The notes under the pieces were generated by a model. It did no database searches, was not told where the DNA came from, and worked only from the letters and a program-made list of their open reading frames with translations. Shown here piece after piece: positions 1,202-10,227 of a DNA stretch of 64,000 bases. The DNA comes from Escherichia phage ECBP2. Position 1 is the stretch's first letter. Each line of letters begins with the position of its first letter. The position numbers were made by a program, and so were the translations under genes. Location of the stretch: sequence record NC_018859.1; one strand, written 5' to 3'.

Positions 1202-1850
1202 CAATATGACAGGAACTAATACACTGAATGCAATCTATGAGAACATGGGATGTAAAGGCGAGGTTGTTTACAATGGTAATCTCCGTCCTTTATCAGAGGA
1301 CACTCTCTATCTGAATCGTGTTCATGAAACCACTGGAGGTAAATCCCGAGTTGAGATGGTAAAACAATTGGCTCATGATTCTGTGTATGGGTATGCTCCT
1401 TCAACCCGTGAATTATGGGAAGGTTTGATTCCTCGTACAGAAGCTAAAGATGTGAAAGATTATTTCACTGTAGCAAAGGAAGTTAAACGTAAGCTTCCTT
1501 CCAATCTAGAAGTTGTTCCGTATGTATCTGACAAACATGCACACCTGCCGGATTATGCCCGTGAGATGATTGAGATGATTGAAGAAGCCGAGTATGAAGC
1601 TCTGAATAATTATCTCAATTCAAAAGACCAATGGTCTCGTAATGTAGTAATTGATGAAGAAGGTAATGAAGTAGTTACGTGGGTGCATGTTAGTGAACAA
1701 GCTCTGGACCCCGAGCTTGAAGAATACAAAAAATTTTTGGCGTCCTCTTCTTTTGATGTAGAGAATGACAAGTCCGTTCCAGTTACTTGGAAAGGTGAAA
1801 CGGTAGCTCTCCAGACTTTGTTCAACCTACACGTAGGTGATGTAGACTAA
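1191..1850 (+). CDS. hypothetical protein
   Basis: 219-aa ORF, GAAGGAGAG immediately upstream, overlaps the previous stop. Confidence 0.6.
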   Translation: MMNNNMTGTNTLNAIYENMGCKGEVVYNGNLRPLSEDTLYLNRVHETTGGKSRVEMVKQLAHDSVYGYAPSTRELWEGLIPRTEAKDVKDYFTVAKEVKRKLPSNLEVVPYVSDKHAHLPDYAREMIEMIEEAEYEALNNYLNSKDQWSRNVVIDEEGNEVVTWVHVSEQALDPELEEYKKFLASSSFDVENDKSVPVTWKGETVALQTLFNLHVGDVD

Positions 1851-6671: not shown

Positions 6672-7751
6672 ATGGCAAATGAATTTATTGACCCAAACGA
6701 TTTCAAATCATTCCTTCAGTTAGATGACTTAAAAGGTTCCTTCAAAGAAGACCTTAGTCGATTAGAATCTGAACAAGAACCAGAAGTGGACATTGACGAT
6801 GAATTCCCGGAAGATGCCGGTGACCAGTTCGACATTGATTCTGACATTCTGGGCAAAGGCGATAGCCTAGCGTTCGAAGATGAAGACGGATGGGATGATT
6901 CGGAAGAGGAAGGTGAAGAAGACGAAGGTGATTCTGACAGCGACGCTGATGAAGTGGATGTGGAAGATGAGCCAAGTGATGCAGATCACGATGATGCTGC
7001 TGACAGTGACTACGAAGATGGCGATGCTTTCGATGTAGATTATGAAACTGTTATCACCCTTCCTGATGGTCGTGAGATGACTATTGAAGAGTTATCAAAT
7101 GGCTATGTTACTGGCTCTGATATGACTGAACGGGAATCTGTTCTTCAGCGTCATGTTGAAGCTTTTGAAGAGCGTGTAGGTGGTTTAGCGGATGTATTAG
7201 AATTAGCATCCTTAGAAGCAGACCGAGTGATTGAAGATTACAACGGTTTTGATTGGGACAAGCTAGCAGTTGAAGATCCACAAGCCTATGTTGAAAACAA
7301 ACGCTTTTTAGAGAAATACACTGCTCGTCGTCAACAGCTTGAACAGGCTCAGGTCAAAATTAAGCAAGATGCACAAGCAAAGGAACAACAAGCCTTCCAA
7401 GCCAAATGTACTGAGTGTGTTAATGTATTGAAACGTGAGATTCCTAATTGGGATGACAGCGTTTATCAGAATCTGATGCAATATGCAATTGATCTCGGTG
7501 CTACTGAAGAAGAAGTCTTGAAAGAGAACCGTCCGTCAATCTTCCTTGCTCTGCACAAAGCATACCAATTTGATAAAGGTAAGCAGCAGGTGATGGCTAA
7601 GATTAAACGTCCCGGTGCTCCACGTAAGGTTGTGAAGTCCGATGCTTCTAAGTCTCGTTCTTCCAATACGCCAGACAACGCTAAGGTTGCCAAGGCATTT
7701 TCAGAGGGTCGTATTCGTCACGAAGATGCATTTAAGTATCTCGTAGATTAA
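6672..7751 (+). CDS. scaffolding protein (putative)
   Basis: Highly acidic Asp/Glu tract plus coiled-coil region; sits between portal and capsid genes. Confidence 0.55.
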   Translation: MANEFIDPNDFKSFLQLDDLKGSFKEDLSRLESEQEPEVDIDDEFPEDAGDQFDIDSDILGKGDSLAFEDEDGWDDSEEEGEEDEGDSDSDADEVDVEDEPSDADHDDAADSDYEDGDAFDVDYETVITLPDGREMTIEELSNGYVTGSDMTERESVLQRHVEAFEERVGGLADVLELASLEADRVIEDYNGFDWDKLAVEDPQAYVENKRFLEKYTARRQQLEQAQVKIKQDAQAKEQQAFQAKCTECVNVLKREIPNWDDSVYQNLMQYAIDLGATEEEVLKENRPSIFLALHKAYQFDKGKQQVMAKIKRPGAPRKVVKSDASKSRSSNTPDNAKVAKAFSEGRIRHEDAFKYLVD

Positions 7752-7791
7752 TCGACAAATTATTTTTTAATAGTATAGGAGCTAACATAAC

Positions 7792-8850
7792 ATGGCAAAT
7801 CCAACTTTATTTGTATCTTACGACCAGAATGGTAAAAAACTTTCTTTTGCTAACTGGATTTCTGTTCTGTCCCCGCAGGATACCCCGTTTGTGTCTATGA
7901 CTGGTAAAGAGTCTATCAACCAGACTATTTTCAGCTGGCAGACCGATGCACTGGCAAGTGTTGATGCTAACAACGCACACGTTGAAGGCTCTCGCGCTGA
8001 AGACGGTGAAATGAAACCGACCGTTATCAAATCTAACGTTACTCAGATTCTGCGTAAAGTAGTTCGTGTATCTGATACCGCTAACACCACCGCTAACTAC
8101 GGTCGTGGTCGTGAACTGATGTATCAGCTGGAGAAGAAAGGTAAAGAGATTAAACGTGACCTCGAGAAAATCTTGCTGTCCGGTCAGGCTCGTACCGACG
8201 TTCTGGCTGACCAGTATCTGACTAACTCAGCAGCTGATCCTGCTCAGGGTGGCCTGAATGACACTCATGCAGCTCGTAAGACTGGTGCTTTCCAGTTCCT
8301 GTGTGCTCACGGCGGTCTGACTGGTACGAACGTTAACAAAACTGTTGATGGCCCGGCTGACCCGGATACTGGTGCAGTAACTGTTAAAGTTGCTAAGAAC
8401 GCATCTAACCCGGTTGCTAACATCGGCTTTGATGAAGCAGATATCTTTGATATGACCCTTCAGCTATATACCGCAGGTTCTGAAGCAGACATCATCATGA
8501 TTAACCCTGCTCATGCAGCAATCTTTGCTAAGCTGCAAGAAAACTCCGTTGGCTCTCGTCAGCGTATCTTCGAAAACACCAAGCAGTTCATCTACGAAGT
8601 AAATAGCATCACTGACCCGCTGGGCCAGAGCTATAAGATCGTAGTTAACCGTTGGATGCCTGCTGATGCAGTTTACTTCTTCCGCAGCTCTGACTGGACT
8701 CAGATGGTCCTTCGTGCTCCGAAGCGTACTGAACTGGCTAAAGATGGTTCTTACGAGAAGTGGATGATCGAGATGGAAGTTGGTCTGCGTCACCGCAACC
8801 CGTATGCTTCTGGCGTACTGTTCACCGCTGCGGGAAAGGCGGGAGCGTAA
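7792..8850 (+). CDS. major capsid protein
   Basis: 352 aa, strongly biased codon usage, RBS AGGAG, located after the scaffold gene. Confidence 0.75.
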   Translation: MANPTLFVSYDQNGKKLSFANWISVLSPQDTPFVSMTGKESINQTIFSWQTDALASVDANNAHVEGSRAEDGEMKPTVIKSNVTQILRKVVRVSDTANTTANYGRGRELMYQLEKKGKEIKRDLEKILLSGQARTDVLADQYLTNSAADPAQGGLNDTHAARKTGAFQFLCAHGGLTGTNVNKTVDGPADPDTGAVTVKVAKNASNPVANIGFDEADIFDMTLQLYTAGSEADIIMINPAHAAIFAKLQENSVGSRQRIFENTKQFIYEVNSITDPLGQSYKIVVNRWMPADAVYFFRSSDWTQMVLRAPKRTELAKDGSYEKWMIEMEVGLRHRNPYASGVLFTAAGKAGA

Positions 8851-9377
8851 CAGTTGACAGTGTAACTGTTAGTCCTGCGTCTGTTGCTAGTCTTCAGACG
8901 GGGGCTACTCGGCAGTTCACTGCAAGCGCGGAGAAAAGTGATGGTTCTACCGAAACAACTGGCTTTACTTGGTCAGTGACAGGAGGTGGTTCTATCACTC
9001 AGTCTGGTTTGTATACTGCTCCGAGTGCGGCTCAATCCACTGATGTGTCCATTACTGCAACATTAGAAGATGTTTCTGGTACAGCAACCATTTCTGAAAT
9101 TGTTGCTCCTGCCCCTACCATCGTATCTCGTGGTCCAATCGCAGATAAGGTAGGCGGTTCTACTACAGCTTTCACTACAATGTTTACCGTTACCAATTCA
9201 GCTGCTTCTAACTATACTTTCGTAGTAACTCCTCCGGGAGCTGGTTCTGTAAGTGCTGCCGGTCTTCTGACCTTGGCTGATGCTGCTTCTGGTGCTGTAA
9301 GTGTTAAAGCCACCCACTCTACGGTTTCGAGTGTTACGGCTACTTGTGAATTTACAGGTGTAACTCCAAAAGAGTAA
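8832..9377 (+). CDS. capsid C-terminal extension reached by -1 frameshift; Ig-like (Big_2-type) decoration domain
   Basis: Slippery heptamer G_GGA_AAG at 8832..8838, four codons before the capsid stop; the -1 frame reads GKGGSVTVDSVTVSPASVASLQTGATRQF... to a stop at 9377 and has no own start or RBS. Confidence 0.6.
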   Translation, partial: GKGGSVTVDSVTVSPASVASLQTGATRQFTASAEKSDGSTETTGFTWSVTGGGSITQSGLYTAPSAAQSTDVSITATLEDVSGTATISEIVAPAPTIVSRGPIADKVGGSTTAFTTMFTVTNSAASNYTFVVTPPGAGSVSAAGLLTLADAASGAVSVKATHSTVSSVTATCEFTGVTPKE

Positions 9378-9386
9378 AACTATAAA

Positions 9387-9417
9387 GGCTGCCTTCGGGT
9401 GGCCTTTTCTTGTTTTA
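9387..9417 (+). terminator. rho-independent terminator candidate
   Basis: GGCTGCC-TTCG-GGTGGCC hairpin followed by TTTTCTTGTTTT. Confidence 0.5.
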
Positions 9418-9438
9418 AGACCTATACAAGCCAGTGTG

Positions 9439-9447
9439 TAATGTATA
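9439..9447 (+). promoter_or_regulatory. TAATGTATA promoter-like motif
   Basis: Exact TAATGTATA about 34 nt upstream of the 9481 start; the same 9-mer recurs upstream of genes on both strands. Confidence 0.35.
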
Positions 9448-9480
9448 TTCTTTGTCTACATACAACTAGGAGGACAATCT

Positions 9481-10227
9481 ATGGCGATGCCAGACGTTCA
9501 AAACCCAATTAATACCTACGGATGGCTTAAGAAGGCTGTGTCCCTCTGGGCTGACCGTGATGACCCTGAATTTGTTAATCAAATTCCAAACTTTATTAAC
9601 TTTGCAGAAAAGGAAATCTATCGTAACTTACGTATTCCTTCTCTGGAAAAAGAAGTATATTTAGATATTAAAGATGGTGTGGCTTTTATCCCACCAGACT
9701 TCTTAGAAGCACAATGGATTATGAGAGCTTCGAATGGGATGATGTTCCGAGCAACCTCTCCTGAAGAACTTGATTGGATGAAAAGAAATAACTCTATTAA
9801 CCCATCCAACTGGAATCAAGGTGATGTGATGTTTGCTCGTTTAGGTAGTCGCTTTATGTTCTACCCACTCATTGATGCAGACACTCCTATTTATCCTGAT
9901 GATGGAGCACCTGAGATTCCTGCTGATAATGCTGTGGTTTTGAGTTATTATGCTGACCCTCCAGAATTCCATGAAGACGAAGATACAAGTGCTATTCTGA
10001 CTATTGCTCCTGAATTACTTCTCTATTTTACTCTACGTCATGCTTCTTTGTTTGTTCAAGATGATAATGGAGTGCAGAAGTGGTCTGCTCTTGGTAAAGC
10101 AATTCTAGATGAAATTGTTGAGCAGAGTAAGAAAGCAGAATACTCAGGGTCACCTCTTGTAATCCCTCGAACCATTAGCCGTCTTAATAGCTCTCGTGAA
10201 GTGTACGGCATTCGTAGAAACAGATAA
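9481..10227 (+). CDS. virion structural protein (possible head-tail adaptor or tail tube component)
   Basis: 248 aa, RBS AGGAGG, placed between capsid and tail fiber genes. Confidence 0.45.
   Translation: MAMPDVQNPINTYGWLKKAVSLWADRDDPEFVNQIPNFINFAEKEIYRNLRIPSLEKEVYLDIKDGVAFIPPDFLEAQWIMRASNGMMFRATSPEELDWMKRNNSINPSNWNQGDVMFARLGSRFMFYPLIDADTPIYPDDGAPEIPADNAVVLSYYADPPEFHEDEDTSAILTIAPELLLYFTLRHASLFVQDDNGVQKWSALGKAILDEIVEQSKKAEYSGSPLVIPRTISRLNSSREVYGIRRNR

Follow-up and report, generated by a model that had tools for sequence, protein, structure and literature searches.

The best-described counterparts of the locus considered here are the capsid genes of phages phiEco32 (gp11/gp12), Paul (CPT_Paul_009/010) and YF01 (gp8) and of Proteus phage Privateer. 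All encode proteins of the SU10_MCP family, carry the sequence GGGAAAG a few codons before the stop codon and share both the −1 direction of the shift and a homologous extension with immunoglobulin-like (Ig-like) domains. The genome paper on phage SU10 (PMC4281155) described GGGAAAG 'as in phage phiEco32', with mass spectrometry showing two forms of the capsid protein, of 38.5 and 55.4 kDa. The same signal was described in Privateer, in which the longer product is present in virions (PMC7881722), and the YF01 paper described the frameshift group-wide and explained SU10 as an exception (PMC9965538). The long form of phiEco32 is cited here second-hand, from what PMC7881722, PMC4281155 and the Paul record say of it. 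The GenBank records of Paul and YF01 contain a two-part joined capsid coding sequence (CDS), and the Paul record adds the note 'Frameshift at GGGAAAG; Frameshift in PhiEco32 major capsid protein product as well'. Here we analyse the corresponding locus of Escherichia phage ECBP2 (NC_018859.1), using "the window" for the whole 64,000 nucleotides (nt) examined, and conclude that its Kuravirus-like major capsid gene very probably undergoes a programmed −1 ribosomal frameshift at the heptamer G_GGA_AAG. With the site published and annotated in close relatives, a frameshift of this kind is not new.

Comparable arrangements occur in less closely related phages. Phage lambda uses the identical G_GGA_AAG on E. 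coli ribosomes to produce G and G-T, the long product being held at a small, fixed proportion of the short one, with about 3.5% shifting in the figure quoted in PMC9965538, but the lambda gene encodes a tail assembly chaperone, not a capsid protein, and its extension is not Ig-like. In phages T3 and T7 ribosomes shift to −1 shortly before the major capsid gene (10A/10B) ends, which yields a minor, longer subunit that co-assembles with the short one, although their capsid proteins belong to an unrelated sequence family, their heads are isometric and their slippery site is a different one. A preliminary description of the window, made from its letters, had likened the locus to T7 10A/10B. The comparison is apt as far as a minor longer capsid subunit goes, but T3 is the closer parallel, the extension of T3 gene 10 being Ig-like and that of T7 10B not (PMC5009743). 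Phage phi29, a podovirus that likewise has a prolate head, carries a C-terminal Big_2-type (BIG2) Ig-like domain on its capsid protein gp8, but that domain is encoded in frame, is present on every subunit and involves no frameshift.

The capsid protein of the window is readily assigned. It matches Pfam PF17236 (SU10_MCP) over model positions 7–289 of 292 (E = 4e-78, 263 bits against a cut-off of 24.1) and PHROG 1328, major head protein (E = 3e-119), and it is 91–95% identical in amino acids (aa) to Kuravirus-like capsid proteins. Its gene ends with the codons GCT GCG GGA AAG GCG GGA GCG TAA, in which GGA and AAG are zero-frame codons. A check of sequence and frame bore out the proposal in the preliminary description that G_GGA_AAG follows the X_XXY_YYZ pattern, AAG being the fourth codon before the capsid stop. 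Heptamers of this pattern are found in frame 41 times in the approximately 17,000 codons of the 48 open reading frames (ORFs) of the window, G_GGA_AAG only once, at the capsid end, and it is the single canonical in-frame heptamer of the capsid gene. A long −1 frame lies behind just one of the 41, that of the capsid gene, with 179 codons; the next longest has 36.

The arrangement is also conserved. The heptamer does not vary among the 26 distinct sequences from Gordonclarkvirinae, with extensions of 178–545 aa behind it, and in these relatives the zero-frame tail past the heptamer consists of three to five Ala, Gly or Val codons. In the Privateervirus phages of Proteus, whose capsid protein is 57% identical, GGGAAAG stands two codons before the stop, and the −1 frame behind it, 169 codons long, encodes I-set and Big_2 domains.

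Several observations identify the −1 frame as coding sequence. From the heptamer it runs for 179 sense codons and a stop, in line with the roughly 180 open codons first noted, and joined to capsid residues 1–349 it would give a protein of 528 aa and 55.8 kDa. In codon alignments the ratio of nonsynonymous to synonymous substitution rates (dN/dS) of the extension is 0.19–0.24 against phiEco32, NJ01, Bas94 and SU7, compared with about 0.1 for the capsid gene proper, and nucleotide differences are concentrated at the third positions of the −1 frame (28/20/62, 38/32/88 and 25/24/71 by codon position). Together the two results indicate purifying selection and hence a genuine coding region. The extension matches PHROG 13745, 'Ig domain containing protein' (E = 1e-81). 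Among the Gordonclarkvirinae relatives the −1 frames, 178–545 codons long, begin G(G/S)G-VTVD-(S/T)(V/I)TVSP, and the frame is intact in 25 of the 26 distinct sequences, the exception being SU10. The intrinsic terminator-like hairpin past the extension (Table 1) precedes the adaptor gene and marks the end of the transcription unit that holds the capsid gene. SU10, WFI101126 and Paul have terminators annotated at the equivalent place. In the window none was found between the capsid stop and the extension.

Most public records of the group present the Ig-like region differently, as a gene of its own, and we therefore examined where such a gene could start. Scanning the −1 frame for ATG, GTG and TTG together with their upstream context gave nothing usable, as the preliminary description had held, and no such codon occurs between GTG 8760 and GTG 8976. 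The former lies inside the capsid gene; the latter, 46 codons into the extension, falls midway through Ig-like domain 1. Neither has a Shine-Dalgarno sequence. A separate gene with its own internal start, encoding a free decoration or minor capsid protein, could claim some precedent, for a separate 'Ig domain containing protein' is entered in the records of phiEco32, SU10, KBNP1711, Bas88, EP335, Bas94, SU7, ES17 and 172-1, and the paper on the cryo-electron microscopy (cryo-EM) structure of SU10 treats gp10 as a possible minor capsid protein. These records, however, place the start at 12, 33, 84 or about 127 nt past the capsid stop, and the positions correspond to non-start codons in the window: the Met chosen by gene callers in relatives (AEMSDGS) is Lys here (AEKSDGS), and the GTG start of the phiEco32 record is GTA. 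Database ORF calls for the region range from 108 to 252 aa, a spread which suggests that there is no genuine start. Moreover, the codons 5′ of the annotated starts are conserved as protein (VTVDSVTVSPASVASL...), and the earliest start available in the window, GTG 8976, would bisect the first Ig-like domain. We consider a separate gene very improbable.

Taken together, the conserved heptamer, the coding −1 frame, the lack of a conserved start and the terminator past the extension support the programmed −1 frameshift that had been proposed for this locus, no other reading accommodating them all, and the predicted masses of the two products, 38.6 and 55.8 kDa, match the 38.5- and 55.4-kDa forms reported for SU10. 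In the mechanism we envisage, all ribosomes would initiate at the capsid ATG (7792), where the upstream AGGAG is the sole ribosome-binding site for short and long products. For the majority, reading GGA AAG GCG GGA GCG TAA would end in release of the short protein of 352 aa. The others, a minority, would slip back by one base with tRNA-Gly on GGA and tRNA-Lys on AAG; the slipped tRNAs would re-pair with GGG and AAA, and reading would resume in the −1 frame at GGC (8838). In E. coli AAG is read by a single tRNA-Lys and is a well-established shift-prone codon. The resulting 528-aa product would carry at its C terminus a short linker of Gly and Ser followed by two Ig-like domains in tandem, with ...FTAAGK-GGSVTV... 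as the predicted junction, and would co-assemble with the short form so that a few subunits of each prolate head show Ig-like domains on the outside. A tryptic peptide predicted to begin at the first −1 codon, 5′ of any start codon (GGSVTVDSVTVSPASVASLQTGATR), and a junction-spanning chymotryptic or Glu-C peptide predicted from the fusion (TAAGKGGSVTVD...) would be signatures of such a product.

By analogy with lambda G-T and its identical heptamer, the efficiency of shifting would probably be a few percent. The SU10 head contains 715 capsid subunits (SU10 structure paper), and at that efficiency a head of about this size would hold a few tens of long subunits. By comparison with T3 and phi29, and from what is generally written on Ig-like domains of phages, it appears plausible that these domains are displayed on the outer head surface and serve in weak adhesion.

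The extension was modelled with AlphaFold2 from 27 homologues, giving an all-beta structure of 15 strands in two blocks, each a beta-sandwich domain, with a predicted local distance difference test (pLDDT) score of 96.7. The best solved match in Foldseek is a tandem Big_2 structure of Leptospira LigA (E = 2e-11), and invasin, S-layer Ig-like domains and phi29 gp8 (6qvk, E = 2.7e-4) are matched as well. In a library of viral structures the model comes closest to an 894-aa protein of phage Paul entered as 'major capsid protein', itself the frameshifted fusion. Sequence comparison is less decisive. Pfam Big_2 (PF02368) aligns with residues 6–84 at 19.9 bits (E = 7e-4), below the gathering cut-off of 22.8, so that it is the structure model that carries the Ig-like assignment; in Bas88 the homologous extension exceeds the Big_2 cut-off, at 33.6 bits. 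Domain 2 scanned alone has no match in Pfam and matches PHROG 33551, 'Ig domain containing protein' (E = 5e-18), and a sequence search of the extension against solved structures returned one marginal match (E = 0.044). Thus the Ig-like fold named in the preliminary description agrees with the model and the LigA match, but there are two domains where a single Big_2-type domain had been proposed, and judged by sequence alone their membership of Big_2 is borderline.

Downstream of the heptamer, an inverted repeat, ACAGTT (8850..8855) and AACTGT (8864..8869), had been pointed out as a possible aid to slippage. It is present, 11 nt past the heptamer, and proved to be the 6-base-pair (bp) core of a larger conserved hairpin that begins directly 3′ of the heptamer (Table 1). 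The full hairpin has a minimum free energy of −18.6 kcal/mol (z = −3.7; none of 200 shuffled sequences was as stable). Its upper helix, UAACAGUUG with UAACUGUUA (8848–8856 with 8863–8871), includes the capsid stop codon and the inverted repeat 8850..8869 and is by itself of modest stability (−8.2 kcal/mol, z = −1.9). In a comparison of 11 distinct relatives, 94.8% of hairpin cells are paired, and the eighth pair of the upper helix, U8855-A8864, is limited to KBNP1711- and Bas88-type sequences.

Synonymous sites provide support that does not rely on covariation. Within the first 100 codons of the extension, 34 fourfold degenerate sites lie in invariant amino-acid columns and seven of them never vary. 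Where such sites fall within the upper-helix arms (ACA, ACU and GUU), three of three are invariant, against four of 31 elsewhere (hypergeometric p ~0.006), and fourfold sites neighbouring the arms do vary. We regard the hairpin as a reasonable but unproven candidate for a frameshift stimulator. The SU10 genome paper proposes a different stem-loop, one that encloses the heptamer (PMC4281155), and a hairpin starting 3′ of the heptamer is not described in the accounts of the Kuravirus-like frameshift cited here.

Some points weigh against the programmed −1 frameshift proposed above. The three synonymous positions of the heptamer are invariant in close relatives, but taken alone this is not significant (joint p ~0.13), given that 48% of fourfold and 56% of twofold sites are invariant in the close group. 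No compensatory change on both sides of the hairpin occurs among the 11 distinct relatives, and the covariation term of RNAalifold is −0.02. The base of the hairpin abuts the heptamer with no spacer, and the upper helix starts 7–9 nt downstream. From established ribosome geometry, the lower helix (8839–8844) would already lie within the mRNA channel, so that only the upper helix could form a barrier. The long form of ECBP2 is a prediction from sequence, and SU10 has lost its long form and has normal heads without extra density, which implies that the extension is dispensable, at least in the laboratory.

Could the long product arise by another route? The −1 frame is open from 35 codons before the capsid stop, so that a shift anywhere in 8745..8847 would yield a fusion. 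Besides tandem slippage at the heptamer, a single tRNA might slip at another point of the overlap, or the shift might be +2. Distant relatives seem to shift at GUA_AAG without a full heptamer. Set against this, G_GGA_AAG is a proven −1 site in lambda G-T in E. coli, and it is both the only canonical heptamer of the capsid gene and the conserved element, so we think such routes very improbable, slightly more so than a separate gene. Transcriptional slippage was rejected, there being no homopolymer longer than 3 nt, as was stop-codon readthrough, the extension not being in the capsid frame. That site and frame are a relic in ECBP2, the long form being functionless or left out of the head, could draw on the normal heads that SU10 assembles without it and on a function of the Ig-like domains that is not established (PMC9965538), but is equally improbable in view of purifying selection on the extension (dN/dS ~0.2), a frame intact in nearly all distinct relatives and in several expanded to 372–545 aa, the apparent recent gain of an intact cassette by recombination, and the finding of the long form by virion mass spectrometry in relatives.

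Table 1. Coordinates of features at the ECBP2 capsid locus (positions in the window).
Feature	Position	Strand	Remarks
Scaffolding protein gene	6672..7751		Upstream of capsid gene; from ORF list
Shine-Dalgarno-like AGGAG	7777..7781	+	10 nt 5′ of capsid ATG; read from sequence
Major capsid protein gene, zero frame	7792..8850	+	352 aa, 38.6 kDa; HK97-fold, SU10-type
Slippery heptamer G_GGA_AAG	8832..8838	+	X_XXY_YYZ in register of capsid frame
−1 frame extension	8838..9377	+	179 sense codons and TAA 9375..9377; starts GGC GGG AGC GTA
Zero-frame tail Ala-Gly-Ala and TAA	8839..8850	+	Overlaps first four full −1 frame codons
Predicted imperfect RNA hairpin, ~16 bp	8839..8878	+	Directly 3′ of heptamer; candidate stimulator
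Ig-like domain 1, Big_2-like	8853..9092	+	Extension residues ~6–85; AlphaFold2, Foldseek
Ig-like domain 2	9117..9365	+	Extension residues ~94–176; AlphaFold2, Foldseek
Intrinsic terminator-like hairpin and T-run	9384..9407	+	7 nt past extension stop; 10 bp, GC-rich
Adaptor gene	9481..10227		After −1 frame extension, followed by tail fibre; Pfam SU10_adaptor

Nucleotide matches place the window with the Kuravirus-like (Gordonclarkvirinae) podophages of E. coli, a group with prolate heads. StefiGeyer_Bas88, TH42 and TH43 are its nearest relatives, with about 90% identity over the first 25 kb, and the 1.8 kb around the shift site are 92.8% identical to KBNP1711 and 86–88% identical to phiEco32, SU10 and SU7. 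A search of the 64-kb window with ARAGORN returned no tRNA gene. One tRNA is tabulated for most Kuravirus-like phages (PMC9965538), and here its gene may sit beyond the limits of the window. Rfam families gave no match in the window at gathering thresholds.

The 179-aa, two-domain cassette of the window is of the KBNP1711 type, whereas the closest capsid relative, Bas88, has an extension of 541 aa. A mosaic block (8792..9600) comprising shift site, extension, terminator and adaptor start is at least 99% identical to KBNP1711, with flanks of 73–93%. The two extensions differ at 2 of 537 nt, and Bas88 is only 64–68% identical to the window across the extension. The Ig cassette thus seems, from these comparisons, to be exchanged as a module whose left breakpoint lies just 5′ of the slippery site. 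Among otherwise similar Gordonclarkvirinae (eight sequences) the extension ranges from 178 to about 545 aa, its length varying by Ig-like modules added after a conserved first domain; in YF01 and Paul it is about 540 aa, giving long forms of 892–894 aa. In the SU10 locus compared (its positions 1651..1673), one extra nucleotide inserted around the hairpin loop brings the −1 frame to a stop after 11 codons, and the Ig ORF comes to lie in the capsid frame behind two stop codons. This insertion fits the absence of extra density in the cryo-EM head and conflicts with the 55.4-kDa form reported for SU10.

More distant relatives show other arrangements. Lahexavirus LAh_8 and environmental contigs (L008–L011, 3907..3960) and Serratia phage KSP100 (L059, 3283..3693) have no X_XXY_YYZ heptamer. 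Their capsid genes end AAG GUA AAG GCG/CCC UAA or UCA GUA AAG UCG UAA, and their −1 frames encode Big_2 or I-set Ig-like domains of 89–170 aa with no plausible start, recorded as 'tail protein' or 'major tail subunit'. These capsid ends suggest −1 slippage on A_AAG alone. In L008–L010 a GC-rich 6-bp hairpin lies 6 nt downstream. In an environmental relative (L013, 3921..3931), A_AAA_AAG lies three codons ahead of the capsid stop, but the −1 frame behind it spans just 41–45 codons and is rich in Pro and Lys. Finally, the Salmonella 7-11-like phages (such as pSal-SNUABM-01 and PKM.Hi.22.6) have a homologous capsid protein in a short form of about 312 aa and a long, Ig-bearing form, but there the long form comes from a duplicated gene of its own, read without recoding. 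In the four sequences compared the capsid paralogues are adjacent, the short one (312–314 aa) lacking a slippery site and the long one (585–778 aa) having the Ig-like domains as an in-frame fusion. Here the same two-form capsid is reached by gene duplication.

On a broader view, which we put forward only tentatively and think rather less likely to be right than wrong, the hairpin would be a selected stimulator that sets the ratio of long to short form in Kuravirus-like phages, the two-form capsid would have been reached by several routes among SU10-type capsids, and cassette and shift site would make up one recombination module. If so, the SU10-type family would have arrived at a few Ig-tagged subunits per head by way of G_GGA_AAG with the hairpin described above, GUA_AAG with a GC-rich hairpin (Lahexavirus-like phages), A_AAA_AAG, and a duplicated in-frame capsid gene.

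For annotation, the locus is correctly represented by a joined CDS, 7792..8838 and 8838..9377, beside the 352-aa form; most public records of the group, like automatic gene callers, instead split off an 'Ig domain containing protein' at an arbitrary internal start. Biologically, it is an instance of a well-known theme, in which a fixed minority of capsid subunits carries Ig-like domains that may aid weak adhesion to surfaces or mucus. The frameshift here neither opens nor settles an outstanding question, but the constraint on the hairpin, the alternative shift sites and the exchange of cassettes could inform how frameshift ratios are set and evolve within one capsid family.

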